Source of the DNA: a virus
Lineage: Duplodnaviria; Heunggongvirae; Uroviricota; Caudoviricetes
Direction: 5' to 3' (one strand)
Virus record (IMG/VR): IMGVR_UViG_3300049014_000001
Coordinates: 24,956 to 88,955 of that record
Length of the DNA stretch: 64,000 bases
This document shows positions 1,474-34,772 of this stretch, piece after piece. The notes beneath the pieces were generated by a model. It saw nothing but the letters and a program-made list of their open reading frames with translations, did not search any database and was not told where the DNA came from. Made by a program: the position numbers and the translations under genes. Positions within the stretch are counted from its first letter, which is position 1, and the number at the start of each line of letters is the position of its first letter.

Positions 1474-1626
1474 CATGTTCTGGCGGAAGACTGACATCCC
1501 GACTGCCATGCGCTTGAAGCACACCAAAGGCTTAGCAAGCCCCGCCAGCGCCCCGGCTGGTTAATCTTCCATGTATTTGAATAATAGCACTACTTCCTCG
1601 TTTTGTCAAGCAGGTAGTGCTACCTA

Positions 1627-1950
1627 TCACTTGGTGATGTCCTGCAACATCTGGAACACACCCTTTGTTACTGTGAATTTCTTCGCCTGTGCATCAGTCA
1701 CTTCAATGTCGAAGTAGAAAATTCCAACGTTGTTTGCTTGCGTATCGTCCATAGAGAACTCCACAACTCCATTCGTCGGAGTTGCCACCGTACCATTCAA
1801 CTGAAACACTTGCTGAGTTGCGTCCACAGGATTACTCTGTTTGTTCACTGTCAGCTTGATTACACACCCGGTGAGATTCAACGGGGAACCTGCGTCTGAC
1901 AGGAACAGAGAGAATGGCTTAGTATCCCCTCTGAACCTTTCAATATTCAT
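1627..1950 (-). CDS. Hypothetical virion-associated protein
   Basis: ORF in track. The better start is the second Met (MNIERF) preceded by GAGAGG RBS, directly downstream of the tail-fibre-like genes. Confidence 0.55.
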   Translation of the reverse strand: MNIERFRGDTKPFSLFLSDAGSPLNLTGCVIKLTVNKQSNPVDATQQVFQLNGTVATPTNGVVEFSMDDTQANNVGIFYFDIEVTDAQAKKFTVTKGVFQMLQDITK

Positions 1951-1960
1951 ATTACCTCTC

Positions 1961-2785: not shown

Positions 2786-2786
2786 G

Positions 2787-3287
2787 TTATACTCCCGGCC
2801 AACCAGCGTTGTAGTCGTATTGGCAGATTTGTTCGAATGAAGTCATCGCTGCGATGTTATCTCGGTGACGACCATCAACGCCTCCGATATTCGCCTCAAT
2901 AGCTGACAATCTTGCAGAGTTACCTTCTACTTTCGTCACCAAAGCTTCCAATGTAATATTTCTTGCAGTGGCTTCGATATTCAACATAGGACACTGTGCT
3001 GCGTCTCCTGTGGCTCTGTACTTAGCTGCCTCTGCTGCCTTGATCGACCAACTAGCCATCTCACCTACGCTTACAGAGGCAACCACAGCATCACGAAGCC
3101 CTTTGGCTTTCTTTAGAACCTCTGTGATAGCGTATGTCTTTGCATCTTGCACAGAGTAGCCATCGATAATAGCTTGTACGGCTGTATCGTTAGATGAAAC
3201 CCACACGCCATCTTTTTGCATCAGCCAATGTCCAGCACGAGAAATAGCTTCGTGAAGCCCTGCTCCTTTTTCTGTATATGTAATCAT
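2787..3287 (-). CDS. Hypothetical protein (tail-fibre-associated; start re-set to MITYTEK)
   Basis: The track ORF begins inside the upstream gene. The internal ATG at 3285-3287 follows stop TAA at 3290-3292 of the upstream gene. Confidence 0.5.
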   Translation of the reverse strand: MITYTEKGAGLHEAISRAGHWLMQKDGVWVSSNDTAVQAIIDGYSVQDAKTYAITEVLKKAKGLRDAVVASVSVGEMASWSIKAAEAAKYRATGDAAQCPMLNIEATARNITLEALVTKVEGNSARLSAIEANIGGVDGRHRDNIAAMTSFEQICQYDYNAGWPGV

Positions 3288-3289
3288 AA

Positions 3290-4162
3290 TTAATAGTAGA
3301 TAATAGGAAGAGGTGCGAACTGCCCCGGACTCACGCTTGTAACAGTAGGCATGGTACTCGGCAAAGATGTCCATCCACCTGTCATGGCACTGCACGTAGC
3401 GTAGACATTAGGCTGGCCGGGGTCAGTTACACCCAAAGGCCCAGTTTGTGCTAGCGTTGTGTTAGCTGCTCTCAGCGTAACTGCTACGCTTGAAACTACT
3501 CCTAGATAATACCAACCCGGAGGAATCTGACTCTTATTCCCAACTGGCGAAGCTGTCTTCACACCCGTTGTGTCTGTACGCAAATCTCCTGATTCCATTA
3601 CCAGTGGCCCTGCCGATCCGTCAGGAAGCACAGGATAGAATCCAAGACGAACTTTGTCCGTAGACGTTCCACCCGCTGTAGTGACCTGTACACCTAGTCC
3701 AGAAATGCCTTTACCAGCCTCAACACGACATCCAAGTACGAGCATGACATTCGCTGTCAGCCCTTTAGTGTTTGCCACGTTAATATATGGATAAGGAGTA
3801 CATCCTCTATGTGCAGCATTACTGATTGCTGCTGGTACTGCATTAACAATACCCGCATTAGCTGGAATTGCGCAGACAACTTTATATGTTCCTGCTCCCA
3901 AGTTAACTGCGGTAGGGGATACGCTTGTTAGCACTCCACTTACCATAGTCTGGATAATAGCAATTCGCTGCAACGTAGTAGAGTCTGAAAGTTTTCCAAT
4001 CCCTACTTCAACTGGTGTTCCATCACTTTTAAGAATCTCGTAATAGAAAGGCTGTCCAATGGCGAATTGATCTGCGAAAGTCGAATAATTAGTGACAGTA
4101 GCAAGAGTCAAATCTCCAGTACCAGTAGTTGTGGTTGTTTGATAGACCCAATTCGCCAGCAT
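3290..4162 (-). CDS. Tail fibre / receptor-binding protein candidate
   Basis: 290-aa ORF; N-terminus MLANWVYQTTTTTGTGDLTL resembles fibre N-termini; T/G/V-rich beta-type composition. Confidence 0.55.
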   Translation of the reverse strand: MLANWVYQTTTTTGTGDLTLATVTNYSTFADQFAIGQPFYYEILKSDGTPVEVGIGKLSDSTTLQRIAIIQTMVSGVLTSVSPTAVNLGAGTYKVVCAIPANAGIVNAVPAAISNAAHRGCTPYPYINVANTKGLTANVMLVLGCRVEAGKGISGLGVQVTTAGGTSTDKVRLGFYPVLPDGSAGPLVMESGDLRTDTTGVKTASPVGNKSQIPPGWYYLGVVSSVAVTLRAANTTLAQTGPLGVTDPGQPNVYATCSAMTGGWTSLPSTMPTVTSVSPGQFAPLPIIYY

Positions 4163-4164
4163 GA

Positions 4165-4608
4165 TTAATCCTCAGTTACCAGATTGGCAGCAGTGGTTAC
4201 GCGTGGAATAACTCCAGCAGCCATAGTTACGTTAGGAGTCGCAGTTCCTTTGTAAAGAATCTTGCCTGCTCCTGAGCTAGCCGTACCAATACTGAAGTGA
4301 GTAATAGCAGCACCCGGAGATGCCGTGCAAGCAGGGAAGTCTAGATTATTAACTAGATTCACGGCATTAGCTGTGACAGTAAATCCTCCAGTTGTTCGGG
4401 CTACGGCCATTCGCGTATATCCAGTGTATGTGGTTTCGTTTGTCGTTTGATCGCCAGTTTCGCCGGGGTCTGCTGTATGCAGTGCAAAATATAGGCTACC
4501 GGCAGCGGCAGATGGTTGAAGTCCCGAAGCATCCCCGATAAGAGGAATTGCTACGTTGTTGAATACCAGTTTCAGGTAGTCATTTTCGAAGGTATTACCT
4601 TTTGACAT
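4165..4608 (-). CDS. Hypothetical structural protein
   Basis: 147-aa ORF, first gene after the tRNA-array terminator; G/T/A-rich. Confidence 0.55.
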   Translation of the reverse strand: MSKGNTFENDYLKLVFNNVAIPLIGDASGLQPSAAAGSLYFALHTADPGETGDQTTNETTYTGYTRMAVARTTGGFTVTANAVNLVNNLDFPACTASPGAAITHFSIGTASSGAGKILYKGTATPNVTMAAGVIPRVTTAANLVTED

Positions 4609-4629
4609 ATTACGTCCTTTTTGAGATAA

Positions 4630-4664
4630 AGAAAAAGCCCGTAACCTTTTAAGGCACGGGCTTG
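4630..4664 (-). terminator. Intrinsic terminator after tRNA array (minus strand)
   Basis: aaaaagcccgtaaccttttaaggcacgggctt: 8-bp GC stem then U-run on the minus strand. Confidence 0.55.
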
Positions 4665-4699
4665 GTGTTTGAGGACGTTAACCACACTGTCCTCGTGTG

Positions 4700-4772
4700 T
4701 GGAACCAAACCAAGGAGTTGAACCTTGTATCTGCGGTTCGTAGCCGCTGAGCCGATATCCGTCGGGTCTGGT
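4700..4772 (-). tRNA. tRNA-Arg (anticodon ACG), short D-loop
   Basis: T-arm CAAGG-TTCAACT-CCTTG, acceptor ACCAGAC/GTTTGGT, anticodon loop CTACGAA, CCA encoded. Confidence 0.6.
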
Positions 4773-4780
4773 ATTGTTCT

Positions 4781-4854
4781 TGGACACGCTAGCGGGATTT
4801 TAACCCGCCTACGGAGCTTTGCAGGCAACTACCTAGTCACTCGGCCATAGCGTG
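4781..4854 (-). tRNA. tRNA-like element, identity unresolved
   Basis: Perfect acceptor CACGCTA/TAGCGTG and CCA, T-arm GCGGG-TTAAAAT-CCCGC, but the anticodon arm does not fold by hand. Confidence 0.35.
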
Positions 4855-4859
4855 CGTTC

Positions 4860-4942
4860 TGGTGGACTATATCAGGAATCGAACCCGACTTCCCCCGCCC
4901 TACTACCAAGATGTATGGTTAGCGGGTAAATAGCCCATAGTC
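4860..4942 (-). tRNA. tRNA-like element, identity unresolved
   Basis: T-arm TCGGG-TTCGATT-CCTGA and acceptor-like ends GACTATG/TATAGTC; the interior is irregular. Confidence 0.35.
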
Positions 4943-5016
4943 TGGTACTCCGTGAAAGAATCGAACTTTCGTACTCGCCGTGTAAAGACGACGTTCTACC
5001 ATTGAACTAACAGAGC
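4943..5016 (-). tRNA. tRNA-Val (anticodon TAC)
   Basis: GCTCTGT TA GTTC-AATGGTA-GAAC, anticodon arm TCGTC-TTTACAC-GGCGA, T-arm GAAAG-TTCGATT-CTTTC, ACCA 3' end. Confidence 0.75.
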
Positions 5017-5274
5017 ATTGTTCGTGGTTCTTTATTATCCCTTACGAGGATTATTCTTCAACCGGCTAAACGGACTCTTCAATCTAACCCGGACCATTGG
5101 CTAGAGAGGCTACTATACTGCATACGCGTACGTTGCAGTTACGTTTGGTCGTGAGTACGTACCATCTAAGCTTTCACCGCAAGACCCATACGCGCCCATG
5201 CACGAGCTAACGCTGCCCTCCTTGCAACTCCTACTTACTTAGCGGCCCAGTTGCGAACTGGCCTCACGATTGAC

Positions 5275-5351
5275 TTGGTATTGCATAGCGGATTCGAACC
5301 CCTATCCACGGATTGAAAGTCCATGTGTCCTAACCATTAGACGAATGCAAT
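5275..5351 (-). tRNA. tRNA-Glu (anticodon TTC)
   Basis: D arm GTCT-AATGGTTA-GGAC, anticodon arm ATGGA-CTTTCAA-TCCGT, T-loop TTCGAAT, CCA. Confidence 0.7.
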
Positions 5352-5358
5352 ATAAATT

Positions 5359-5445
5359 TGGTGCAGTGACTAGGATTTGAACCTAGACGGAACTAGCCGA
5401 CCTGCGGGTTACAGCCGCGTACCCTACCGAATGGGTGTTCACTAC
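5359..5445 (-). tRNA. tRNA-Tyr (anticodon GTA), class II with long variable arm
   Basis: 87 nt, acceptor GTAGTGA/TCACTGC, anticodon loop CTGTAAC, T-arm CTAGG-TTCAAAT-CCTAG, CCA. Confidence 0.65.
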
Positions 5446-5454
5446 ATTGTTTCT

Positions 5455-5529
5455 TGGTGCACCCGGTTGGTAACGCTCCAACCTCTTGAGGGTTTCAATC
5501 TCACACTAATCTATCTCAGTTACAGGTGC
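5455..5529 (-). tRNA. tRNA-Phe-like (anticodon GAA) with non-canonical T-loop
   Basis: Acceptor GCACCTG/CGGGTGC, D arm ACTG-AGATAGAT-TAGT, anticodon loop TTGAAAC, but the T-loop reads AGCGTTA instead of TTCRANN. Confidence 0.5.
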
Positions 5530-5546
5530 ATAAATGTTCTTAGTTG

Positions 5547-5621
5547 TGGGGTGAGCACTGGGAATTGAACCCAGATAAACGCCTTCACAGGGCGCGTCAC
5601 TAACCGTTGTGATATGCCCAC
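5547..5621 (-). tRNA. tRNA-His (anticodon GTG)
   Basis: D arm TCAC-AACGGTTA-GTGA, anticodon arm GCGCC-CTGTGAA-GGCGT, discriminator C, CCA. Confidence 0.75.
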
Positions 5622-5643
5622 AACTAAAAACATTCTAATACTT

Positions 5644-5731
5644 TGGTACGCGTAGTTGGAATCGAACCAACTCTGGACTTGCGTCTCGGTAGATTAAAAG
5701 TCTACTGCCTACCCACTTCGGCATTACGCGT
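5644..5731 (-). tRNA. Class II-scaffold tRNA with Lys-type anticodon loop CTTTTAA (anticodon TTT)
   Basis: 88 nt; perfect acceptor ACGCGTA/TACGCGT, 3-bp D stem, anticodon arm GTAGA-CTTTTAA-TCTAC, ~17-nt variable stem-loop, T-arm GTTGG-TTCGATT-CCAAC, A73, CCA. Confidence 0.55.
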
Positions 5732-5822
5732 ATAAAACAGCCCTACGCTACAACGGCCACCATTGGAAGAATCCAACACAATGATATAGACGTTACACCG
5801 CAACTTCTGTCAGGCTGTATAT

Positions 5823-5906
5823 TGGTACACAAGGCGAGACTTGAACTCGCAATCCCGAAGGCCACAGGGTTTGAGCCTGCTGCGTATGCCGTTCCGCCAC
5901 TCGTGC
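5823..5906 (-). tRNA. tRNA-Leu (anticodon CAA), class II
   Basis: 84 nt; D stem GCG/CGC, anticodon arm GCAGG-CTCAAAC-CCTGT, long variable arm, T-arm GCGAG-TTCAAGT-CTCGC, CCA. Confidence 0.7.
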
Positions 5907-6034
5907 ATTGTTTAATTTGACTAGGCTATCCTCACGTCGTCTTACTCTTGGATATGCGATACCACTTTGTATGGAGCCGACAGACGATCCGCCCCGTACT
6001 AGGTTCCCTCCGCTAAGAGGCATCAGTCAAAACT

Positions 6035-6118
6035 TGGTAGGCTAGGAGGGATTCGAACCCTCAAAGGCCCTGCTTCTAAGGCAGGTAGGTGTACCAGATT
6101 TCCATTAGCCACCAGCCC
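6035..6118 (-). tRNA. tRNA-like, possibly Leu (anticodon TAG) with irregular D region
   Basis: Anticodon arm CCTGC-CTTAGAA-GCAGG, T-arm GAGGG-TTCGAAT-CCCTC and acceptor GGGCTGG/CTAGCCT are clear; about 7 extra nt lie between the acceptor and anticodon stem. Confidence 0.45.
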
Positions 6119-6274
6119 ATTATATTCTGGCTACAGTTTTGTTCAGGTCGTAGCCACCTGTCCTTGTCGGGAGTTTCCGTCCCATACGGGCCGAAACAGA
6201 TTGTAGATGGCGCTATCGCCAGATCGGACGCACTGCCGTACAGTATCGGAGTTTAACCGTACATCTACAAAACT

Positions 6275-6350
6275 TGGCGCGGGCGACAGGATTCGAACCT
6301 GCAACGAACGGCTTGGAAGGCCGACACTCTGCCACTTGAGCTACGCACGC
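6275..6350 (-). tRNA. tRNA-Gly (anticodon TCC)
   Basis: GCGTGCG TA GCTC-AAGTGGCA-GAGT, anticodon loop CTTCCAA, T-arm GCAGG-TTCGAAT-CCTGT, GCCA end. Confidence 0.75.
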
Positions 6351-6413
6351 ATTGTATTTGCTAGCATACTAACCTACTAGCGGGTGTACCCATCACACTA
6401 CTGGGCCATAACT

Positions 6414-6490
6414 TGGCGCGATGTATCGGTTTCGAACCGATGACCCTCTGCTCGACAGGCAGGCGCTCTAACCATCTGAGCTAACACCGC
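6414..6490 (-). tRNA. tRNA-Asp (anticodon GTC)
   Basis: GCGGTGT TA GCTC-AGATGGTTA-GAGC, anticodon arm CCTGC-CTGTCGA-GCAGA, T-loop TTCGAAA, GCCA. Confidence 0.8.
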
Positions 6491-6498
6491 ATATATTC

Positions 6499-6574
6499 TG
6501 GCTGTGAGGGTAGGCTTCGAACCTACATCAACCTGATTAACAGTCAGGAGCTTTACCAATTAAGCTACTTCACA
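6499..6574 (-). tRNA. tRNA-Asn (anticodon GTT)
   Basis: D arm GCTT-AATTGGTA-AAGC, anticodon arm CCTGA-CTGTTAA-TCAGG, T-arm GTAGG-TTCGAAG-CCTAC, CCA. Confidence 0.75.
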
Positions 6575-6697
6575 ATTGTTCTGTACGGGCTTTGCACCAC
6601 ATTTGAGAGTTTCAGATTCATGCCACTCTTAACTTTGTTCCAGCTACCTCTTCCGTCCCACAGCGCAGGCTTACAGGTTGATTCTCTGGACGTGCTC

Positions 6698-6773
6698 TGG
6701 TTGCGAAGAGTGGGAGTCGAACCCACGACACGAAGGTTATGAGCCTCCTGTTCTACCGCTGAACTATCTCGCA
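6698..6773 (-). tRNA. tRNA-Met (anticodon CAT; elongator, Ile2 or initiator not resolved)
   Basis: D arm GTTC-AGCGGTA-GAAC, anticodon arm GGAGG-CTCATAA-CCTTC, T-arm GTGGG-TTCGACT-CCCAC, 3' GCAACCA; acceptor pairing slightly irregular by hand. Confidence 0.65.
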
Positions 6774-6779
6774 ATTGTT

Positions 6780-6854
6780 TGGCTCCCTGTGTTGGAATTG
6801 AACCAACGTTGTCCATCATTAGCCGGTTTGCGCACAAGTCCGGGTTAAACAGGA
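6780..6854 (-). tRNA. tRNA-like element, identity unresolved
   Basis: T-arm GTTGG-TTCAATT-CCAAC, CCA and acceptor-like ends present; the interior does not fold into standard D and anticodon arms. Confidence 0.3.
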
Positions 6855-6941
6855 AATTATTCGGCCCCTAGATTCTGTTTGTCGGCTCAAGGGTGGCCTC
6901 AGTGAGGGTAGATTAACTCACGCCGCTTCCGCGATTGCTCT

Positions 6942-7021
6942 TGGTGGAGAACATCGGATTCGAACCGATCTGATTAGCCTACTTGCAAGGCAGGTGTCCA
7001 CTCCCAGCAGACCCGATCCCC
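6942..7021 (-). tRNA. tRNA-Ala (anticodon TGC)
   Basis: GGGGATC GG GTCT-GCTGGGAGT-GGAC, anticodon arm CCTGC-CTTGCAA-GTAGG, T-arm ATCGG-TTCGAAT-CCGAT, ACCA. Confidence 0.7.
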
Positions 7022-7140
7022 AATATTTGTTACGTAGTGCTACTATACTACATGCTCAACGATTTGTCAAGCATTTTGAATTCTGGTCAGGGTAGGTGGC
7101 TCTGCCCCACCGTCCTCTCGCTTCCAAGGCGAGCCGTCTA

Positions 7141-7566
7141 CTAGGCTGACAATATACCCTGAGTATTTAGTCCTGCATACCAATTAAATTGTTCAGCAGT
7201 TCTCATAGCATGACAGTTTGCACAAAGCACCTGACATTTAGCTATCTCTTCTTTAATTTTCTTCAAAGCCAGTCCACGCATTTGTGAAACGTTTGCAGAC
7301 TTTGTACTACGATCTATGTGATCGAACTGAAGGCAAGGAACCCTAGCTTCTCCACATTCAACACATGGGTGTTCCAGCAGATAGTCATACACGTATTGCC
7401 AATTGGCTTTACGTAACTCTAATTGTTGATCGTATTTAATTTGCTTCTTTTCCTCGCTTCTGTTTGCGTGATACTTTCTATCATACTCCCGCTTGCAAGG
7501 TCTACATAGTTTAGATCTTTGTCCGTATGGCTCGTACGCCACTTGGCACGAGCTACACGTTCTCAT
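7141..7566 (-). CDS. HNH homing-type endonuclease
   Basis: 141 aa; paired Cys clusters CSSC...CRPC...CVEC and HNH core FDHIDR...N...LCANCH; immediately flanks the tRNA array. Confidence 0.8.
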   Translation of the reverse strand: MRTCSSCQVAYEPYGQRSKLCRPCKREYDRKYHANRSEEKKQIKYDQQLELRKANWQYVYDYLLEHPCVECGEARVPCLQFDHIDRSTKSANVSQMRGLALKKIKEEIAKCQVLCANCHAMRTAEQFNWYAGLNTQGILSA

Positions 7567-7582
7567 ACGCCCTCAAGTTGTT

Positions 7583-7669
7583 TGGTGCTGCCTGTGTGAT
7601 TCGAACACACGTTGGGATTTCTCCGCTGGGTTACAAAGCCAGTGCCTTCAACCTCTCAGCCAAAGCAGC
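7583..7669 (-). tRNA. Class II-scaffold tRNA with anticodon loop TTTGTAA (anticodon TGT, Thr-type)
   Basis: 87 nt; acceptor GCTGCTT/AGGCAGC, Ser-like D arm TG-GCT-GAGAGGTTGAA-GGC, anticodon stem CTGG/CCAG, long variable stem-loop GGA-GAAA-TCC, T-arm GTGTG-TTCGAAT-CACAC, A73, CCA. Confidence 0.5.
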
Positions 7670-9559: not shown

Positions 9560-9934
9560 ATGGCAACTATGTCTATCCTCCGTCACGCTCTGGCACTGAA
9601 TGCCAAGGAAATCACCGCGATGCAAGCCTCTGTCGCACAATTCAAAGTGGAAGCCAAAGCTTGGCGTGAACAGGGAGAGCAAGCATATGCTGTAGCTGCA
9701 TCAAAAGACGTAGAAAAGCATCGTGCTAGCCTTTCCAAGCTGGTTACGATGCAACGTAAGATAAAAGCAGAGATACATGCTATCGAGCGCAATGAACGTA
9801 TCACTCGTAAGTACGCTATCGTGTTCGGTAAGGCACCTATCTTGCAATCGAAGACTAGCTACGAAATGGAATCGATGCTGGACACACTTCTCGCAGAAAA
9901 ACAAGCGGAAGCTGAAGTAGAAGCCGTGGCATAA
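9560..9934 (+). CDS. Hypothetical protein
   Basis: 124-aa ORF with RBS GAAAGGAAA. Confidence 0.5.
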   Translation: MATMSILRHALALNAKEITAMQASVAQFKVEAKAWREQGEQAYAVAASKDVEKHRASLSKLVTMQRKIKAEIHAIERNERITRKYAIVFGKAPILQSKTSYEMESMLDTLLAEKQAEAEVEAVA

Positions 9935-9942
9935 AAGCCACA

Positions 9943-9972
9943 AAGAAATGTGTTGACACGTCTAGGGTTTAT
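9943..9972 (+). promoter_or_regulatory. Promoter TTGACA-18-TGATAAT containing conserved spacer tctagggtttataca
   Basis: The same 15-mer spacer recurs at 13655-13670 behind another TTGAC box. Confidence 0.45.
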
Positions 9973-10011
9973 ACATGATAATTCCTTCATCAACCAACTG
10001 ACGGAGGAATT

Positions 10012-10716
10012 ATGAAAAAGCTCATCGGCTATGTACGTGTCTCCACCAAGGAGCAAGGCAAGACCAAGAACGGTTTGGAGGCTCAGGCCGAAGCCATCCG
10101 TCTGTTCGCACACTATAACGGCTACGAGCTGATTGACATCGCAGAAGAAGTGATGTCCGGTGCTGATGATAACCGTCCTGTCCTCGCAGAAGTGACACGT
10201 CGAGCTGCCAAACTGGGCGCATACGTGGTCGTCAACAAGCTGGATCGTCTGTCTCGTAATGCCCTGTTCATCCTGAAGTATATCGATCAGAATAGCAAGT
10301 TCATCGTGACCATGCTTGGGGATAACGTAGACCCGTTCATGCTCCACATCTACGCCGGTTTGGCGGAAAAGGAGCGCATGATGATCGCAGAACGCACCAA
10401 GGCAGCTCTGGCCGCTAAAAAGGCCCGTGGTGAAGCTCTGGGGGCGTCTGAAGCTGTGCTGGAGAAGGCAAGGGTCAGTGCTGGAGCTGCCGAAGCCACG
10501 AAGGCAGATGACTTTGCAGCCCGTTTGCGCCCGACTCTGACCCGCATGAAGAAAGATGGCATGACCCTGCGTGAAATGGCTCAGGAATTGAATGCCAGCG
10601 GCACGAAAACGGCTCGTGGTGGCGAATGGCATCCAACAATTTTTAAAAAGGTGGTTTTTCTCTTGGTTGATTGCGGGCTCCGCCCACGCCCCAGTTGGGG
10701 CTTTACAAAAACATAG
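10012..10716 (+). CDS. Small serine recombinase (resolvase/invertase family)
   Basis: N-terminal IGYVRVSTKEQ catalytic-serine motif, ...SGADDNRP..., LDRLSRN, C-terminal HTH; about 200-230 aa. Confidence 0.85.
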   Translation: MKKLIGYVRVSTKEQGKTKNGLEAQAEAIRLFAHYNGYELIDIAEEVMSGADDNRPVLAEVTRRAAKLGAYVVVNKLDRLSRNALFILKYIDQNSKFIVTMLGDNVDPFMLHIYAGLAEKERMMIAERTKAALAAKKARGEALGASEAVLEKARVSAGAAEATKADDFAARLRPTLTRMKKDGMTLREMAQELNASGTKTARGGEWHPTIFKKVVFLLVDCGLRPRPSWGFTKT

Positions 10717-10742
10717 CTAGTACTACTAACCAAGGAGAAAAT

Positions 10743-11339
10743 ATGACCCCTGCACAACGTTGCGCAAAAGTTTCCCAGAACATGGACAACATTGCCCTCA
10801 TCACCTTCGCCATTGGCTTCTGCAAAGCCGCCCACTTCGGCCAGAAACGTAAATGGTCGTTCGAACCTTATTGGACTCACCCTATGGCGGTGGCAAACAT
10901 CCTGCATGAACACGGCCACAATGACCCTCACATGCAAATTGTCGCCCTGCTGCACGATGTAGTAGAGGACACGCCTATCACTCTGGAAGAAATCACTGAG
11001 CACTTTGGCGAAAAGGTAGCTGAAGATGTCCACTGGCTCACGAAAGTGGACTACAGCAAGCACACAGACCCCTTCGGCATGCCCCTGAAACGCGCTGCGA
11101 AGAAATTCCTTGAGAACCTTCGTCTGAGCCGCGCTCCACAGCACGTCAAAACGATTAAGCTTGCCGACCGCTTGCACAACATGACCATTCTCACGGAAGA
11201 CCCGGCTTTTGCTCCGCTCTACGCAGAAGAGACTCGTGAGCTTCTTGACTACGCCTTGAAAGAAGGCTGTCCTGTCCTGTGGGCAAAGCTGGACAAAATT
11301 ATCAAGAATTTCCAAAATCCTATTGACAAGGCTATCTAA
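10743..11339 (+). CDS. HD-domain hydrolase of the RelA/SpoT (p)ppGpp-hydrolase type (small alarmone hydrolase-like)
   Basis: H...HD motif with ALLHDVVEDT signature; start re-set to MTPAQR after RBS AAGGAGAAA. Confidence 0.65.
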   Translation: MTPAQRCAKVSQNMDNIALITFAIGFCKAAHFGQKRKWSFEPYWTHPMAVANILHEHGHNDPHMQIVALLHDVVEDTPITLEEITEHFGEKVAEDVHWLTKVDYSKHTDPFGMPLKRAAKKFLENLRLSRAPQHVKTIKLADRLHNMTILTEDPAFAPLYAEETRELLDYALKEGCPVLWAKLDKIIKNFQNPIDKAI

Positions 11340-11381
11340 GTAGCGCTACTATACTGCCTACCAACTAACCAAGGAGAAGAA

Positions 11382-11558
11382 ATGAATACCATGCAACAAG
11401 AATTCGATGCGGTAGTCGCCCATTTGTACGCTCAAGGGAAGCGTGCAGCAGTACTAGGACGCTGCAAGTATAGGTCTGATGAAGGAACTATGTGTGCGGT
11501 AGGCTGTCGCATTCCTAATAACATGTATAACCCTGCCATGGAAGGGGCGACATCCTGA
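11382..11558 (+). CDS. Hypothetical small Cys-containing protein (58 aa)
   Basis: ORF below track threshold with canonical UTR CTAACCAAGGAGAAGAAATG. Confidence 0.35.
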   Translation: MNTMQQEFDAVVAHLYAQGKRAAVLGRCKYRSDEGTMCAVGCRIPNNMYNPAMEGATS

Positions 11559-11593
11559 CAACTGAAATCAAAGCACTTAGATAAGGAGAAACT

Positions 11594-11785
11594 ATGCAAC
11601 AGATTATTACCTTCCTTCGTAAAGCCAAGAACATGATTCTGGCCCTGCTGATGGGTCTTGCTGTCGTACTGGCGGTAAGCCTTCTTGTTTTCCTGTCGGC
11701 AGCTCTGAAGGGCATGCTCATTCCGCTGATGTTCTTCTGCGGTGGTGTGTACCTCTTCTACCACTGGCTAGAGGGACGACAATAA
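11594..11785 (+). CDS. Small membrane protein
   Basis: 63 aa, two hydrophobic helices, RBS TAAGGAGAAA. Confidence 0.5.
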   Translation: MQQIITFLRKAKNMILALLMGLAVVLAVSLLVFLSAALKGMLIPLMFFCGGVYLFYHWLEGRQ

Positions 11786-11787
11786 GC

Positions 11788-12063
11788 ATGAACGGCCTAC
11801 CTTACAAAGATACCTTCGCAGCTAAAGGTAGCCAGCTCTACGAAGCTATCACGGAAGGACGTGATGAAGATGCAAAGAAAATCTACGCAGATACGACAGC
11901 TCGTTACCATGCCCTGCTGAATGGACTGTCCGTTCCAAAAGTAGTCGTGTCCGAGAAGAATCCTAAAATCTGGGCTATCCTCGCTGACGATGCAGAATAC
12001 GACAAGCAAGGAAGGCTCGTTAAGAAACTAGAGAAAGGAGGGAATGTAGATGTCAAGGTATAA
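11788..12063 (+). CDS. Hypothetical protein
   Basis: Track ORF in tight same-strand array. Confidence 0.45.
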   Translation: MNGLPYKDTFAAKGSQLYEAITEGRDEDAKKIYADTTARYHALLNGLSVPKVVVSEKNPKIWAILADDAEYDKQGRLVKKLEKGGNVDVKV

Positions 12064-12355
12064 AATTGGACAAGAACTGGAAATCCATTCCCTCAAAGGC
12101 TTCGGGAACGCACAAGAGAACGGTAGACGTGTAAGAGTTGTAAAGCTCCCCGGCTTCCATCCTACTTATCAAAGTAACTACCTCGTTCGCTACGTCGATA
12201 ACTCAAGAGAACTAGTAGCACACCCAGACTACCTACGTCCACCTCCACCACCTTCAAATCGTGGAGACATGGACAAGGTGACAAGCTGGGAAGAGTTCGA
12301 ATCTGTCACTCGCATCCCTGCCGATGTCGTACGAGGAACGGACAGTGAACACTGA
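12050..12355 (+). CDS. Hypothetical protein
   Basis: Track ORF; RBS GGAGGGAATG upstream. Confidence 0.45.
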   Translation: MSRYKIGQELEIHSLKGFGNAQENGRRVRVVKLPGFHPTYQSNYLVRYVDNSRELVAHPDYLRPPPPPSNRGDMDKVTSWEEFESVTRIPADVVRGTDSEH

Positions 12356-12372
12356 GAAGGAAGAATACACCT

Positions 12373-12567
12373 ATGAAGCACACGATTTCTCCCTCCGGGT
12401 GGGCGGGAAGAAGTCAGGAAGAGTTGTATGCGCAACGTGTGGCCTTGTACCGTCCAACACTCCATTCACTTTATGGGCAGTACGAATGGGATGCAACAAC
12501 CGCTACCATCCTTCCTACCACAACAAACGTTATGAAACAACCAAACTTTTCTAAGGAGAAACAATGA
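12373..12567 (+). CDS. Hypothetical protein
   Basis: Preferred over the overlapping 12324 ORF because of RBS AAGGAAG. Confidence 0.4.
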   Translation: MKHTISPSGWAGRSQEELYAQRVALYRPTLHSLYGQYEWDATTATILPTTTNVMKQPNFSKEKQ

Positions 12568-12902
12568 GACTACTACTTCAATGTCGTCTTATCAAAACAG
12601 AAAGACGATTGACATTCGATATTCTTTGGCAGAATGACCATCCAGACATCACATGGAACGGAGATGACGATGGAAATTATCACAAATTCACAGCTAGCAA
12701 CGGCTACGAAGTGATTTCCCGTTCCCGAATGGATATCCAAACAGAACGCATCTGGCTACTAGGTGCCAAGCGTAATGAAGAATCCCGCTCAGGAACAATG
12801 GTGTTCTCCAGCAACGAGAAACGTGATGCTGCTTACTGGAACTTCGTCATCGCACTCAAAGAATGGGCCGATCATAACAACGGATTCATAAATATTTTCT
12901 AA
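12564..12902 (+). CDS. Hypothetical protein
   Basis: RBS TAAGGAGAAACA; overlaps the previous stop. Confidence 0.5.
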   Translation: MRLLLQCRLIKTERRLTFDILWQNDHPDITWNGDDDGNYHKFTASNGYEVISRSRMDIQTERIWLLGAKRNEESRSGTMVFSSNEKRDAAYWNFVIALKEWADHNNGFINIF

Positions 12903-12912
12903 GGAGAAACAA

Positions 12913-13245
12913 ATGTCAGAACTGTCACTACCTACCATCGTACGTCATAAAGACGGAAGCATTTTTGCTATGGTAGAAGGAACACTTGAAGACTGGGTGA
13001 GCCTTGTTGTCATTCACGATACAGAACTCAAGCGGAAACCGGGAGAAGGAACTAAGAACTGCTGGCACCAATCCTCCGTCATCGACTGGATTGAAGATGG
13101 CACCTACAACGTAATCCACGGAGGCATCACAAACAAGCTAGAACCAATTCGTATCGAAATCGACTCCAGCCCCGTATCAGCAGCATTGGCAGAAGTGAAA
13201 GAACTGGAAGCTACCCTCCTTCGCGTAAAGAGTATGCTGAAATGA
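12913..13245 (+). CDS. Hypothetical protein
   Basis: RBS TAAGGAGAAACAA; followed by a terminator. Confidence 0.5.
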   Translation: MSELSLPTIVRHKDGSIFAMVEGTLEDWVSLVVIHDTELKRKPGEGTKNCWHQSSVIDWIEDGTYNVIHGGITNKLEPIRIEIDSSPVSAALAEVKELEATLLRVKSMLK

Positions 13246-17827: not shown

Positions 17828-18145
17828 TTAATTTCCTTTCAGTTTAAATTCAATGTACGTCACTGGTTGAAATTCAATCCCGTAACGCGTCAAAAACGCA
17901 CCATAGGCGCTTGCAAGCGTTTGGAAGGCGTTAGCATCATCCGACAAGCCTAGAAGCTCTAAACGCTTGTCTATGGCCTTTTCGTAGCACTCTGCGAAGT
18001 ATTCCGGGTTAGCGCCTATGTCCGTGCTGTAGGACGTGCCCATTTCGTTTTTACCAGTGATTCGCAGAACGTAGCTGTTAGCGTTTTGCTTGTGCTTTCG
18101 GAATGTGATTCCGATAGGGCTACCGTCATTATGTAGCAGTTTCAT
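17828..18145 (-). CDS. Hypothetical protein
   Basis: 105-aa track ORF. Confidence 0.5.
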   Translation of the reverse strand: MKLLHNDGSPIGITFRKHKQNANSYVLRITGKNEMGTSYSTDIGANPEYFAECYEKAIDKRLELLGLSDDANAFQTLASAYGAFLTRYGIEFQPVTYIEFKLKGN

Positions 18146-19141: not shown

Positions 19142-19360
19142 TCAGTCTTTTTCTTTACCGTCAATGATTGTGCAAACCGTGGATTCCGATACATACCAGT
19201 CGCCCATGCCGAAAGCTACAGTAAAGCCACTACCAGAGCGCATAACCCACGCGTTAATGTGGATTGCACATCCTTTGTACTCTTCTGTAAGGCTTTTCTC
19301 TTTTGCCTTAGCTAGAATATTGTCGTAGTCCGGGCCGGAATAAGTGAGAGGGCGATTCAT
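19142..19360 (-). CDS. Hypothetical protein (start re-set to MNRPLTY after GGGGGTGAAA RBS)
   Basis: Track ORF with a better internal start. Confidence 0.45.
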   Translation of the reverse strand: MNRPLTYSGPDYDNILAKAKEKSLTEEYKGCAIHINAWVMRSGSGFTVAFGMGDWYVSESTVCTIIDGKEKD

Positions 19361-19871
19361 TATTTCACCCCCGCGATAAAGGCTTGCATCCATTCAAGCA
19401 TTGCTTGATCGTTAGTTTCAAATTCGATAATCATATTTTCACCTATTGGTGTTGGTTGACAAAATCGAATGACCTATTTCTAAGTCACTCTGTTTTACCA
19501 ACTTGCTAGAGACATTCCCATGTGTCTAGCGTGGTGCGCTGTATTCTCATGTCGTCCCGACATTAGCAGCGCCGAATAATTAGATTGTTAAAGAACTGAC
19601 TTCTTGGCTTTGGCTCTTTTCGCTTTAGCTTCATCTCTCTGGCATCCACCTTTAAGACTCTGCACACTCTAAGAACTACTTGCCTACTTCACCGCAACAG
19701 CGTTTTGTGCTGCGATGTAGGTATATTAGGGCATTCAAAGGGGATATGCAATACCCTTTTCAAATTATTTTTGATACGTTGCGTTTTGTTCCTTCCACGC
19801 TAGCTATAAAGAAATTGCGCACGTGCATACACGCACGCGTAGCAAGTAGCGTGCCAGCACTACATAGCTAC

Positions 19872-20664
19872 TTATCCACAGAATCCACCTAAGTTATACA
19901 CATGCCTCTAGAATCGATTATAAAGGCCCCCGTTTCAACGCAAGGCGTTAGCTAGCTCTCGCTATCAATCAAAGCTTGCGCGTCTCCTAGGCCCCTTAAA
20001 ACGCGTTTAAATGGCATGTGGATAACCACAAAAAGCTGTGGATAAGTAGCGTTTTATGTAAATCCGTCTCTTGAGACATGCAAATTTACATGGCTTGACA
20101 TATAAGTCTTACAGATTATCCGGCAAGGAAAGCGGCAGAGAATTTGCAGAAAATACCTAAATATTCAATGGAATCAACAACTTAAGTCTTCTACAAGAGT
20201 GGCAACAGGTCTTCTATAAGACACAAGACAACTCTTATATAAGACATAGGACTACTCTTGTATATGAGTGACATAAAAGCAACTTTCTAAGTCTTATATA
20301 AGAGTTGCTAGCTAATGGGTAGTTGCCTGTTAGGGAGCTAGGGTAGGCAGGGAGGTAAGCAAAGCAAGGGTATGCCTAATAAGCCTAGTTTCCACCGTTC
20401 GGGCTTGTTAGCATGGTAAGAACAGAAAAGCGTATGTATGCATAGCTGGCATACGTATTGCTTTATACGCTGCTGGCATGGCTTTTGCTATGTAACAATT
20501 GCTCTCATACTTGTACGTATAGCAACGATGTACAGGCATACAGCATTGTTGTATCCAGAGCAAAAAATGTGGATAACATGTCTTCGGGGTAATTTTCGAC
20601 AAAGTTGTCCACAAGGCAGGCCCAAAATCCGTCTAAAACGTTAGTTGTCCACAGCTTATCCACA
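19872..20664. promoter_or_regulatory. Cluster of DnaA boxes (TTATCCACA-type) in a non-coding region
   Basis: Perfect 9-mers at 19872-19880 (+), 20018-20026 (-), 20038-20046 (-), 20568-20576 (-) and 20656-20664 (+); 8/9 matches TTGTCCACA at 20605 and 20645. Confidence 0.65.
20187..20305. repeat. Five iteron-like 13-bp palindromic repeats, four of them phased at exactly 23 bp
   Basis: tcttctacaagag (20187), tcttctataagac (20210), tcttatataagac (20233), tcttgtatatgag (20256), tcttatataagag (20293); consensus TCTTnTAtAAGAs. Confidence 0.7.
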
Positions 20665-20919
20665 GAAACGTTGCGTTTATGCAACTGTGGTGCTAAAGCG
20701 ACAACTACCCCGGATTTCCAGCACCGGACAAGCCTAAGTTGACGCTAAGAAAGAACCTCAAAATTCCCCAGTCCTCGGGCAAATTCCGCCTTTCATTTTC
20801 AAAGTGAAAATCGAAAACGACTTTTGGAGCGTTTAAATTCCTACGGTGGACATTCTCCCCTAAAAAGAAAAACCACGCTCTTTGGCGTGGTTCTGAAGCG
20901 TTCTAGGGCTATTATTTTG

Positions 20920-21321
20920 TCAGACGTATTTCTCAGGCTCAAATGCTTCCATCAGGCCATTGAAATTGTCCGGGTCGCCGTCGCTGTAGGAATAATCGGC
21001 AACCACTTCTGAGCCATCATCGGCATTACCCAGAACGATGAAAATGTAATGCTCTTTGAATCCCTCTTTCCGTACCCATACACTTGATTCGTCCAAGTTG
21101 AAAATCAGCTCCATTGCGTCAGTGATTTGACTGGTTTCGGAGTAGGTCTTTTCCATTGTCTCTCCGTCCCATACGCCAGAAATGCGGAAGCCATTCTTCA
21201 CAAGCATTTCAAGCAAGGCGAACACAACCCGGCGTTCATTCTTGGCACGAATGTGCATTGGTTCATCCTTGTACAGGATAGCGTCGATCTTCAAATCAGG
21301 GACAGCGATAACTTGATGCAT
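20920..21321 (-). CDS. Hypothetical protein
   Basis: 133-aa track ORF. Confidence 0.5.
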   Translation of the reverse strand: MHQVIAVPDLKIDAILYKDEPMHIRAKNERRVVFALLEMLVKNGFRISGVWDGETMEKTYSETSQITDAMELIFNLDESSVWVRKEGFKEHYIFIVLGNADDGSEVVADYSYSDGDPDNFNGLMEAFEPEKYV

Positions 21322-32633: not shown

Positions 32634-33012
32634 GTACCGGCTTCAATGTGCGCTTCGTATTGCTCAGCTTGATCCTAATGCAAGTGTAATCTACGCAACA
32701 GGAAGTGTAGAGAAGGCGAACGATGTGTGGCACACGTTGATTAATCTGGTAGGGAAGCCAAATGGATTCTCATACAGACTAATTCAAAGGGAAGCTCGAC
32801 ATGACGGTGGAGGCTTCTTTAAAGTGCTGCCAGTTTGTGAACCCTACTGGCATTACGGAGGCTGGCAGATGAGTCATCTGTGGTTAGACGAAACACTCTC
32901 ACGTGCAGGAAGAGAAGCAATCTCATCTCGTCATAGAAGCGCAAAGGAGCATAACTACGAGCCTCCGGGTATCTATGATGAGTATGGCGTTACAAGGAGA
33001 ATGGACTACTGA
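32611..33012 (+). CDS. Hypothetical protein
   Basis: 133-aa track ORF. Confidence 0.45.
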   Translation: MKGKKSLEYRLQCALRIAQLDPNASVIYATGSVEKANDVWHTLINLVGKPNGFSYRLIQREARHDGGGFFKVLPVCEPYWHYGGWQMSHLWLDETLSRAGREAISSRHRSAKEHNYEPPGIYDEYGVTRRMDY

Positions 33013-34772
33013 TGCAAAACAAATGGGGCATTGACTTGTCTTACCCTCACAACTGTCAATGTCCTCGTTGTGCCAGAAATGGACGAGACACGGCGAAGGA
33101 CAACCTGCAAGTTTATGGAGAGGGTAAGGGCGCTTACTGCCATGCGTGCGAATTCACAATCTTGAGTGATGCAGAGCGAGAGGCACGCGGGATTGATTTT
33201 GAAGATGAGGAAGAGGAAGTGAGCACAAGAGAGCGACTTACAAAGGAAGAAAATGAAAAGATTAAGAGCTACACCGGCCTCAAGTGCAAGGGCTGGCGGG
33301 GCATCAAGGACGAAACAAATAAGTTCTTTGGTATTCGTTATACCTACGACGAAAACACAGGAGAACCAGATGCACAGTACGTACCAACTACCATCAACGG
33401 AGAGCTGGTTGGTTACAAAGTACGCACCTTCCCAAAGGACTTCTCCAGTCCTGTAGGGTTGGTAGGCAAGGATTGTGATCTTGCTGGACAGTTCCGCTTC
33501 CAGAACGGAGGTAGAACACTTCTGTTGGTGGGTGGTGAGGTGGACTTGGAATCTGCTTACCAAATGCTGGCAGAGTATCAGGCTTCTCGTGGCTATGAGC
33601 CTATCCCTGTGGTATCACCCACTGTTGGAGAGACAGGCTGTGTGAAGCAGGTACAAGCGCAGTATGAGTGGTTCAACAAGTTCGACAAAATCATCATTGG
33701 CATGGATAATGACGCTGCTGGTGAAGCTGCTGTACACAAGCTGGCTAAGGTGCTGCCGAAGAATAAAGTGTACGTGGCAAAGTGGAGCAAGAAAGACCCG
33801 AATGCTATGCTTCAAGCAGGCATGGAGAAGCAGTTCGTCAACGATTACTTTAAGGCTAAGCCGTACACGCCGGATGGTATCGTAGGTGCTGCATCGCTGG
33901 CAGATAAGATTCGTGAAGCAGCAGCAATGCTCAAGATTCCTCTGCCTCCGTTCATGCACCGTCTGCAAACAATGATGGCTGGTGGTATCCCGCTGAAGAC
34001 GATTATCAACCTCGGCTCCGCATCGGGTACAGGCAAGAGCACCATCATTGACGAGATGACCTACTACTGGATTTTCAACAGTCCGTACAAACCGGGGATC
34101 GTTACTCTTGAGAGTGATTCAGGCCAGTATGGTACGAAGATTCTTAGTCGTCACCTTGGACGGAAGATTGACCTGATCGAAGATGTCACCGATAAGCTTG
34201 CGTATCTGGATTCGGACTACGTTCGACAGAAGGAGAAGGAGCTTTACTTCCGTGAAGATGGTAGCGAACGCTTCTATTTGATCGAAGACCGTGACGGTGG
34301 TTTGGATTCGATGAAGGAAAAGATTGAACAGCTCATCATCGCATGTGGATGTCAGCTTATCATTCTCGACCCTCTGCAAGACATCTTGGATGGTATGAGC
34401 AACGAAGATCAAGCAGTGTTCCTTAAGTGGATGAAGGGCATGGTGAAGAGCCACGATGTGACGTTCATCAACGTGAACCACGTACGTAAGAGCCAAGGCG
34501 GCAAGCAAGCTAACTCGACTGGTGCAGACCTGTTCGAAGAAGATATGCAAGGTTCGTCTTCCATCTTCAAGTCTGGTGCATGTAACCTGCTGTTCAACCG
34601 TAACAAGGAAGCAGAAGACGAAATCGAACGTAACACCACTAAGATGAAGGCTTCGAAGATTCGTTGGACTGGTCGTACTGGCGTAGCTGGAGAGTACTAC
34701 TACGACAACGCAACACACACCATGTATGACAAGGAAGATTGGCTGGCAAAGAATGGTGTGAAGGAATTTTAA
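33012..34772 (+). CDS. Bifunctional primase-helicase (T7 gp4-like)
   Basis: Zn finger CQCPRCARNGRD...CHACEF, TOPRIM LLLVGGEVDLES, DnaB-type Walker A GSASGTGKST, Walker B IILDPLQD. Confidence 0.85.
   Translation: MQNKWGIDLSYPHNCQCPRCARNGRDTAKDNLQVYGEGKGAYCHACEFTILSDAEREARGIDFEDEEEEVSTRERLTKEENEKIKSYTGLKCKGWRGIKDETNKFFGIRYTYDENTGEPDAQYVPTTINGELVGYKVRTFPKDFSSPVGLVGKDCDLAGQFRFQNGGRTLLLVGGEVDLESAYQMLAEYQASRGYEPIPVVSPTVGETGCVKQVQAQYEWFNKFDKIIIGMDNDAAGEAAVHKLAKVLPKNKVYVAKWSKKDPNAMLQAGMEKQFVNDYFKAKPYTPDGIVGAASLADKIREAAAMLKIPLPPFMHRLQTMMAGGIPLKTIINLGSASGTGKSTIIDEMTYYWIFNSPYKPGIVTLESDSGQYGTKILSRHLGRKIDLIEDVTDKLAYLDSDYVRQKEKELYFREDGSERFYLIEDRDGGLDSMKEKIEQLIIACGCQLIILDPLQDILDGMSNEDQAVFLKWMKGMVKSHDVTFINVNHVRKSQGGKQANSTGADLFEEDMQGSSSIFKSGACNLLFNRNKEAEDEIERNTTKMKASKIRWTGRTGVAGEYYYDNATHTMYDKEDWLAKNGVKEF

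Follow-up and report, generated by a model that had tools for sequence, protein, structure and literature searches.

The untranslated region with which the locus described here is best compared lies in the left terminal repeat of bacteriophage T5, where a 1662-bp stretch, the iss region, contains about eight DnaA boxes that are paired, lie inside inverted repeats and form two clusters at variable distance, with an HNH gene between the repeat regions (Davison, bioRxiv 10.1101/866236). The origins of T5 are argued to lie elsewhere, and membrane-bound DnaA has been proposed, without proof, to stop DNA entry (10.1101/866236). DnaA-box-rich non-coding regions of lytic phages, such as that of T5, are already known, as are origins built from iterons and DnaA boxes. 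Here we analysed a 64,000-nucleotide stretch (the window) of the IMG/VR record IMGVR_UViG_3300049014_000001, positions 24,956 to 88,955, which derives from an uncultured, lytic-looking phage of the Caudoviricetes. According to the list of open reading frames (ORFs), the minus-strand ORFs 19142-19393 and 20920-21321 border a non-coding gap of 1526 bp (19394-20919), which holds the entire locus of interest, namely two clusters of DnaA boxes around an array of palindromic iterons, together with a predicted IHF site and sigma-54-type elements. Because sites resembling those of host proteins, their conservation in related phages and their recurrence in unrelated ones coincide here, the locus is probably a host-dependent replication origin or an early control region.

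Judged by its architecture, the T5 iss region appears to be the closest documented analogue of this locus. Both are gene-free regions of roughly 1.5-1.7 kb in a large lytic phage rich in transfer RNA (tRNA) genes, and both contain about eight boxes, around half of them consensus and often in close pairs. In both, the boxes fall within long-range inverted repeats and into two clusters whose separation varies between relatives, many more repeats and palindromes are present, and one cluster stands beside early promoters; in the T5 record AY587007, one box cluster lies between divergent pre-early promoters. An HNH gene sits between the repeat blocks in some members of both families (ORF9 in T5; 4658-5218 in L004, a relative of the window phage), and each region is more strongly conserved than the genes around it. 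The two regions nevertheless have no sequence homology, the dmp, A1 and A2 pre-early genes of T5 are not found in the window, and the T5 region lacks both the TCTTATATAAGA iterons and the sigma-54-like elements. Perfect boxes number five in the window and three in T5.

Other well-studied systems share parts of this layout. The origins P1 oriR, pSC101, RK2 oriV and F oriS likewise combine an IHF site with DnaA boxes, which in P1 stand on either side, and have an easily melted AT-rich stretch beside repeats that recur about every two helical turns. Unlike these iteron-plasmid origins, the window locus comes with no Rep gene and no partition or copy-control elements that we could find in the sequence scanned, its repeats are palindromic and identical across unrelated phages, and its array has no match in a plasmid collection (72,556 plasmids). 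The lambda origin consists of palindromic iterons inside the O gene and works with a P-type loader, whereas the repeats in the window, although likewise palindromic, are non-coding, and no O- or P-like genes were found among the window ORFs. Phage origins activated by transcription include the T7 primary origin, with tandem promoters and an AT-rich tract, the c2 origin in the early/late intergenic region, and the lambda origin, activated from pR. The locus resembles these in its putative tandem promoters beside an AT-rich stretch, in being non-coding and in lying near the head of early transcription, and like them it would serve phage-encoded replication proteins, here a T7-type primase-helicase and a family-A polymerase; however, none of the T7, c2 and lambda origins combines clusters of consensus boxes, operator arrays for a host regulator and sigma-54-type elements. 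The chromosomal elements datA and DARS are similar in carrying clustered high-affinity boxes and an IHF site outside an origin, but they match the locus neither in sequence nor in arrangement and are without its phage context, iterons and promoters.

The DnaA boxes are strongly concentrated in the gap (Table 1). The 64-kb window has five perfect TTATCCACA boxes and all of them are found here, in both orientations and on either side of an AT-rich core, as a preliminary description of this DNA had stated, the last of them starting at 20656 on the plus strand. By chance, the window as a whole should contain about 0.56 such boxes and the gap 0.013 (Poisson P(>=5) ~2e-12, or ~7e-11 after correction for 42 windows). 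The same description had listed two boxes matching at eight of nine positions, where we count three, and had put the non-coding stretch at about 800 bp, which is roughly half of its actual length. Long-range inverted repeats that include boxes connect 20033-20056 with 20634-20657, and 20036-20050 with 19867-19881.

Between the two box clusters, five iteron cores of the form TCTTnTAnAAGA start at 20187, 20210, 20233, 20256 and 20292, giving spacings of 23, 23, 23 and 36 bp and bearing out the five palindromic repeats and 23-bp phasing reported before. With up to two mismatches allowed, TCTTnTAnAAGA matches seven times in the window, five of these within the locus, compared with 2.06 matches expected window-wide; none of 100 shuffles reached seven, and both matches outside the locus (8598 and 54440) carry two mismatches. 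Each repeat is a palindrome of 12-16 bp and not an asymmetric iteron. Duplex stability in the locus is lowest across the array and its left flank, where 60-mers at 20140-20305 have a calculated free energy (dG) of -68 to -69 kcal/mol versus a window mean of -81.8 +/- 4.3, i.e. about three standard deviations below that mean. The motif WATCAANNNNTTR occurs only twice in 64 kb, and one of the two occurrences is the predicted IHF site next to the array; this site is kept as AATCAAnnACTT, with AATCAA..ACTT invariant in all six aligned phages. To our knowledge, none of the consensus sites of NrdR, Fis, HutC, RcsB, TyrR or LacI-family proteins fits the repeat.

The repeats do resemble part of a bacterial operator. 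SdhR, a HutC-subfamily GntR regulator of betaproteobacterial sdhCDAB and mdh, has the operator TCTTATGTCTTATATAAGACATAAGA, in the form in which PMC4494728 quotes Suvorova et al. 2012. The repeat unit GTCTTATATAAGACATAAGA matches three-quarters of this operator, which is betaproteobacterial and may not be that of the host. The operator is a 26-bp palindrome of four TCTTAT half-sites, two forward and two reverse, of which the phage units carry three, with the same half-site in the same relative arrangement. When 228 phage units were oriented by their flanks, their consensus, aGTCTTATATAAGACATAAGA, equalled the right-hand 19 nt of the operator; 73 of the 228 match this part perfectly, and among the window units, which include TCTTATATAAGACATAGGA and TCTTCTATAAGACACAAGA, the best matches at 18 of 19. 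We found the 26-bp operator in at least 120 bacterial genome stretches, almost all from Betaproteobacteria, and at 58 of 80 bacterial loci examined it adjoins a GntR+UTRA gene with sdhC, sdhD, sdhA and mdh alongside. Bacterial SdhR sites are single or double, whereas the phages have two to six copies phased at 23 bp. Furthermore, the bacterial operator loci have no DnaA boxes, and sigma-54-like motifs occur there at chance level (5 in 886 kb of sdhR control loci), indicating that the combination is specific to phages. No SdhR-like protein was detected by tblastn in the window or the phage loci searched in this way, nor by a profile hidden Markov model built from 56 SdhR proteins in the window, 90 phage loci and the complete metagenomic phage MW202796. 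Since the repeat matches the SdhR operator and no such protein is encoded in the sequence examined, the simplest reading is that the repeats are probably bound by a conserved host protein of the SdhR type.

To identify relatives, we searched IMG/VR with the neighbouring 133-aa protein and the ligase, recovering six related contigs, mostly of ~90 kb and with protein identities of 59-79%; motif searches added three more (L048, L082 and L224). All nine carry three to seven perfect DnaA boxes, syntenic and in two clusters. Relatives have two to four boxes in the 11-bp register seen in the rightmost pair of the window. The TCTTATATAAGA repeats lie between the clusters, in a 23-bp register in six of the nine, at 16 bp in L008 and L009 and in degenerate form in L224. 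In the alignment, the box and repeat cores are invariant at an overall column identity of 61%, and a further block, CCCCTTAAAACGCGTTTAAA, is invariant or strongly conserved. The common layout of about nine related contigs, with (-)(-)(+) boxes followed by the IHF site, iterons, a spacer and (-)(+)(+)(+) boxes, differs among them in box and iteron copy number; as it is kept while the spacers diverge, in relatives with proteins no more than 65-79% identical, we conclude that the locus is functional. In the closest relative, L004 (IMGVR_UViG_3300049191_000018), the HNH homing endonuclease gene mentioned above (phrog_953, E=4.5e-58) sits between the iterons and the right-hand boxes, taking the place of the stretch that bears the tandem sigma-54-like pair in the window. 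Small ORFs within 19394-20919 are not kept in the alignment. For the distant relative Pseudomonas phage vB_PseuGesM_254, an origin with DnaA boxes was predicted by Ori-Finder (PMC11512268); this is not the same element, as it has no consensus TTATCCACA box, and the published origin (20537-20930 in L010, record 70536-70927) consists of AT-rich tandem repeats between divergent genes. Aeromonas phage phiA047 has no consensus DnaA box either.

The same repeats recur well beyond this family. The pattern TCTTNTANAAGA-N11-TCTTNTANAAGA was found in at least 80 IMG/VR stretches, on contigs of 4-268 kb with GC contents of 23-61%, which split into at least 14 groups by their common flanking ORFs. About 28 of the 80 listed loci have perfect DnaA boxes at most 1.5 kb from the array, usually no further than 500 bp, compared with about two expected by our own calculation, and in unrelated groups (L046, L020, L076, L025 and L058) boxes stand 0-90 bp from the iterons, mostly oriented toward them. 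At the nucleotide level the array matched only MW202796, whose complete 43.8-kb genome has it exactly at the divergence of the early and late arms, which is where the module is located in small genomes; the sole protein common to MW202796 and the window is an exonuclease. Proteins of the window have relatives near arrays within their own family and in a few scattered cases (the window protein of 17828-18145 matched in L082, that of 18922-19095 in L045 and the primase-helicase in L054/L088), none of them widely shared. Likewise, clustering of flanking ORFs returned terminase, portal and GP88-type proteins only, none of which is universal. The array follows a tail-spike gene in the L025/L012 group, and within one podovirus family the same slot is occupied either by boxes and TCTTATATAAGA repeats (L030) or by boxes and sigma-54-like repeats (L215).

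Two side observations concern these loci. A cysteine-rich GP88-family protein of ~217 aa (PF17338, E=2.8e-30), absent from the window, is encoded in 14 loci, including L030, L047, L065 and L086, by the first larger gene flanking the array on its early side. In podovirus-like loci (L030 5240-5330, L076 880-950, L213 18350-18370), a conserved G-run, GGGGAGGGG, and the motif GGTACCCTCCCAGATACAAAA, each present in ~27-28 loci, lie between the iteron/DnaA module and terS, and may represent an end or packaging signal.

Sigma-54-type elements form the third component of the locus. The consensus of sigma-54 promoters is TGGCAC-N5-TTGCW, with GG at -24 and GC at -12. The motif TGGCAY-N5-TTGCW is found three times in the window, each time within the locus, against 0.23 expected, and 64 times in the phage loci against ~2.6 expected by our own calculation, a ~25-fold excess, with most of the matches no more than a few hundred bp away from an array. 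An independent search anchored on the sigma-54-like element plus ACGCGTGCG yielded 56 IMG/VR stretches with 51 new loci (L214-L264), 13 of which have one to six consensus DnaA boxes upstream, most as co-oriented arrays of at least three; in most of the 13, the anchor is also preceded by one or two more sigma-54-like elements (at intervals of 28-36 bp in L215, L235 and similar loci), and in L215, L235 and L255 a sigma-70 promoter and then the first early gene follow. The recurrent cassette in L214-L264 runs from two to six co-oriented boxes through two to four tandem sigma-54-type elements at intervals of 28-36 bp, with ACGCGTGCG after the last, to a strong sigma-70 promoter and the first early gene; some of its box arrays arose by 61-bp tandem duplication, and TCTTATATAAGA repeats are also present at just one of the 51 anchor loci. 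In the window, the putative sigma-70 promoter comprises a -10 element TAATAT (19723-19728) and a -35 element TTGCAT (19746-19751) separated by a 17-bp spacer, with an UP-like A/T tract at 19756-19775; its spacing is the same in the window, L005, L006, L009 and L082, and it lies ~100 nt past the ACGCGTGCG hairpin. We infer rather than detect this promoter, because it falls below the threshold of the automatic scan. The tandem sigma-54-like elements are spaced 26-36 bp apart, which is too tight for independent promoters, and no Sigma54_activat protein was found in the window or is annotated in MW202796; for these two reasons the elements may be either true promoters or docking sites. Pseudomonas phage YuA is an earlier case of a phage that uses sigma-54 promoters.

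Table 1 Coordinates of features predicted or found in and around the non-coding gap (window positions).
Feature	Position	Strand	Remarks
GC-rich hairpin and T-run, terminator-like	19817-19838	-	Directly after the leftward sigma-54-like element; conserved in relatives
Putative sigma-70 promoter toward ORF 19142-19393	19723-19775	-	Read by eye; below automatic-scan threshold
Sigma-54-type element TGGCACGCTACTTGCT (predicted)	19841-19856	-	Reads leftward; conserved ACGCGTGCG leader next
DnaA box, perfect TTATCCACA	19872-19880	+	16 bp upstream of the leftward sigma-54-like element
DnaA box, 8/9 TTATACACA	19894-19902	+	Perfect box at the aligned position in L005
Near-palindrome TTAAAACGCGTTTAAA	19996-20011		Within block CCCCTTAAAACGCGTTTAAAyGGCA
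DnaA box, perfect	20017-20025	-	Motif search, alignment
DnaA box, perfect	20037-20045	-	Inside 15-24-nt long-range inverted repeat
Conserved inverted repeat ATGTAAAT...ATTTACAT	20056-20091		Alignment; ATGTAAATC invariant
Degenerate DnaA box TTATCCGGC	20116-20124	+	Same alignment column is a perfect box in L006-L009
IHF-consensus site AATCAACAACTTA (predicted)	20172-20184	+	Abuts first iteron directly
Iteron array, five 12-bp palindromic cores	20187-20303		Extended unit TCTTATATAAGACATAGGA; AT-rich, GC 28-40%
Sigma-54-type -24/-12 element TGGCATACGTATTGCT (predicted)	20447-20462	+	Motif scan
Sigma-54-type element TGGCATGGCTTTTGCT (predicted)	20474-20489	+	Tandem, 27 bp after the first
DnaA box, perfect, first of right-hand cluster	20568-20576	-	Invariant TGTGGATAAC
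DnaA box, 8/9 TTGTCCACA	20605-20613	+	Motif search, alignment
Tandem DnaA-box pair TTGTCCACA-gc-TTATCCACA	20645-20664	+	11-bp start-to-start spacing
Strong intrinsic terminator	20869-20894	-	Ends upstream leftward operon (genes 24499 to 20920)

Taken as a replication origin, the locus would depend on host factors and be coupled to transcription, the reading of the sequence that we consider the most likely, with a probability of about 0.4. Host DnaA would occupy the boxes and oligomerise toward the repeats, IHF would bend the DNA at its site, and a dimeric winged-helix protein, probably the host's SdhR-type GntR/HutC regulator, would sit on the repeats. Together, these three would gate melting of the AT-rich array, with transcription from the flanking promoters aiding opening or priming, after which the phage's own T7-gp4-type primase-helicase (encoded at 33012-34772) and family-A DNA polymerase (38669-41185) would take over. 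Such an origin is suggested by the way in which boxes in helical register appear to converge on an AT-rich, IHF-flanked phased array, and by the outward-facing sigma-54- and sigma-70-type elements predicted to flank this array, with terminators that would insulate it; the terminator upstream of the gap, in particular, would protect the locus from read-through. By analogy, the position of the module at the early/late divergence in small genomes also fits an origin, as lactococcal phage c2 has a transcription-primed origin at such a divergence. Also in favour are the box numbers far beyond chance, the layout and invariant IHF site kept in relatives, the boxes close to the same iterons in unrelated groups, and the replication genes that begin 4 kb away. 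Several observations weigh against it. The phage carries a T7-like replisome, and in T7 no DnaA is needed; no initiator gene was found in the window, within 10 kb on either side of the locus in relatives or in complete MW202796; and the minimum of cumulative GC skew, a measure confounded here by gene orientation, is at ~23 kb and thus off the locus. In addition, the HNH insertion in L004 means that the two halves tolerate separation, and hence that their spacing is not critical, the similar box-rich untranslated region of T5 is held not to be an origin, and the box arrays directly upstream of early promoters in related modules would fit a role in transcription or DNA entry equally well.

That role, in which the locus would be a control hub for early transcription and DNA entry of the T5 iss type and not an origin, seems to us quite possible, if short of an even chance, and is not mutually exclusive with the origin. 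The locus would divide an immediate-early operon, read leftward from 24499 to 20920, from a second block in the same direction (19393 to ~13.8 kb), and DnaA, IHF, a GntR-type protein and sigma-54 or sigma-70 polymerase would bind the entering DNA here and pause it, anchor it or gate the second block by host state. The window parallels the T5 untranslated region at each structural point, its left box cluster is followed, after 16-190 bp, by the leftward sigma-54-like element with the hairpin and the putative sigma-70 promoter, and the 13 unrelated anchor loci repeat this order up to the first early gene, with YuA as a precedent for phage sigma-54 promoters; on the other hand, the pre-early genes of T5 have no homologues in the window, the T5 region is without these iterons or sigma-54-like motifs, the role of DnaA in T5 is itself a hypothesis, an enhancer-binding ATPase for sigma-54 is missing from the window and from the annotation of MW202796, and the AT-rich phasing of the repeats is left unexplained. 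More generally, the cassette may be a portable one, composed purely of host-protein sites (DnaA boxes, SdhR operator arrays and sigma-54 docking) and carried by many phages, probably of freshwater betaproteobacteria, that would tie replication or early expression to host state, or titrate regulators, with no phage initiator needed; we consider this broader proposal rather unlikely. Improbable, in our estimation, is that the locus acts simply as a decoy for host factors, a 'non-coding auxiliary metabolic element', through which the amplifying genome would titrate DnaA, the repressor of the tricarboxylic acid cycle and the sigma-54 holoenzyme, thereby halting host initiation and derepressing sdh/mdh and possibly DnaA-controlled genes. 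A DnaA sink that perturbs host replication had also been raised in the preliminary description. Every recognisable motif is indeed a host-protein site for which no phage partner was found in the sequence examined, the iteron consensus coincides with 19 nt of an operator confirmed between the GntR+UTRA gene and sdhC/mdh in Betaproteobacteria, box and iteron copy numbers vary and the insertion between the halves is tolerated. However, the order and orientation of boxes and iterons and their 0-11 bp abutment are kept within and between groups, which independent decoys would not need, the conserved IHF site, the AT-rich phasing and the promoters and terminators within the locus suggest that a complex is assembled there, and each genome offers just a handful of sites.

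Two further explanations fare considerably worse. The preliminary description had likened the locus to the iteron origins of P1 oriR, F and pSC101 and raised the possibility of a plasmid-prophage lifestyle; the origin-like architecture itself holds, in that boxes, iterons, IHF site and weak duplex are conserved, but the assignment to this iteron class does not, given operator-like palindromes and no Rep found. That description did not mention the sigma-54-like elements, the putative promoters and terminators, the spread of the module among unrelated phages or the T5 region. Scans of the window ORFs against Pfam and PHROG (the genome extends ~26 kb beyond the window) found no Rep, O-type, DnaD-type, ParA/ParB or sigma-54 activator protein, and no Rep_3, RepA, TrfA, partition, repressor or integrase-type gene was found among these ORFs, within 10 kb on either side in relatives or in MW202796. 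The boxes on both sides, the IHF site and the 23-bp-phased repeats match a plasmid origin superficially, and a serine recombinase is present elsewhere in the window, at 10 kb as described. It sits, however, in a separate plus-strand island, and small serine recombinases of the resolvase/invertase type are not usually integrases. Moreover, the palindromic repeats are sites for a dimer, an identical repeat in at least 14 groups that share no protein with the window near it runs counter to the rapid joint divergence of Rep and iterons, the array is unmatched among plasmids, and the gene content (tRNAs, ligases, ribonucleotide reductase, nicotinamide adenine dinucleotide (NAD) salvage) is that of a lytic phage, so that a classical plasmid origin with a phage-encoded Rep is largely refuted. 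We regard as no less far-fetched a packaging (pac/cos) array for the small terminase subunit, or a physical genome end. The array does lie 400-800 bp upstream of terS-terL-portal at 29 of the 80 listed loci, and ~70 bp from terS in the L046 group, and many arrays are at contig ends; yet ends at tandem repeats are expected assembly breaks, and we know of no packaging role for DnaA boxes. A pac site was rejected because TerS proteins of different families (cluster 1 versus phrog_51) adjoin an identical repeat, and because neither the window nor its relatives have a terminase gene near the locus.

A structured RNA at the locus was also considered and rejected. Rfam returned nothing credible for the locus even at E<=1, and tRNAs only for the window; the folding signal of the right half (z=-2.3) is accounted for by the inverted DnaA boxes, and the leader hairpin gave z=-0.4. 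Among the additional conserved elements, the near-palindrome TTAAAACGCGTTTAAA is kept in all aligned relatives that cover it (L005-L007 and L009; L008 begins further right), and blocks resembling that around it were read by eye in the unrelated L046, L025 and L055. Just right of the right-hand boxes, CAAAATTCCCCAG at 20700-20790 is essentially invariant across the aligned relatives.

Genes of the window run leftward from ~24.5 to 13.8 kb and rightward from 24.77 kb on, with replication genes beginning 4 kb from the locus. They include an ATP-dependent DNA ligase, an RNA ligase, a thymidylate synthase, a helicase, a ribonucleotide reductase and a nicotinamide phosphoribosyltransferase. The family-A polymerase is 47-51% identical to those of Aeromonas Plateaulakevirus and Pseudomonas PAK_P3/KPP10-type phages. 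No nucleotide match to the locus and 23 kb of flank was found in 50,697 phage records, and relatives of the terminase were uninformative on the host.

Of the 16 tRNA genes in the window, 15 form a minus-strand cluster at 1106-7669 and the other lies at 45225-45301. The plus-strand island (9560-13245) lies inside the minus-strand block, has overlapping ORFs on the opposite strand and encodes the small serine recombinase (10012-10716; Resolvase N-terminal domain, E=5.5e-28) and, at 10671-11339, a protein with an HD_4 domain, which we take to be the domain family of RelA/SpoT-type (p)ppGpp hydrolases. A second assembly of this phage, Logan SRR35217228_20152 (53,316 nt), appears by coordinate arithmetic to end at about window position 10685, which is the junction of the recombinase and HD_4 genes and would fit an invertible or mobile segment. 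A likely NAD-salvage/ADP-ribose gene set occupies 56352-60829, with the nicotinamide phosphoribosyltransferase at 59171-60829, a NADAR-domain protein and a DUF4326 protein just upstream of it (coordinates approximate), and an ORF at 57916-58734 that, judged from its sequence alone, resembles phosphoribosyl pyrophosphate synthetase. The ORF at 48653-49525, which combines an N-terminal helix-turn-helix (HTH_23/HTH_3-like) with a calcineurin-like phosphoesterase domain, is among the few DNA-binding candidates of the window and is not common to the other iteron-bearing phages.

What is new about this locus is that the consensus of its repeats is identical over 19 nt to the operator of a host metabolic regulator, that they are associated with sigma-54-type elements, and that the cassette, for which no phage-encoded partner was found, occurs in many uncultured phages that are unrelated to one another. 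For almost all uncultured lineages, it is unknown how large lytic phages select the starting points of replication and early transcription, and the locus provides a conserved and testable candidate, with iterons that are not private to one phage, being common to at least 14 groups of otherwise unrelated contigs. The motif could serve as a marker for host prediction in phages of Betaproteobacteria, and the locus would shed light on the long-unexplained DnaA-box region of T5. Should DnaA, sigma-54 polymerase and a GntR-type regulator of the host really assemble here, phages would read host physiology through non-coding DNA alone, a form of host dependence, and of 'auxiliary metabolic' element, that would be new.

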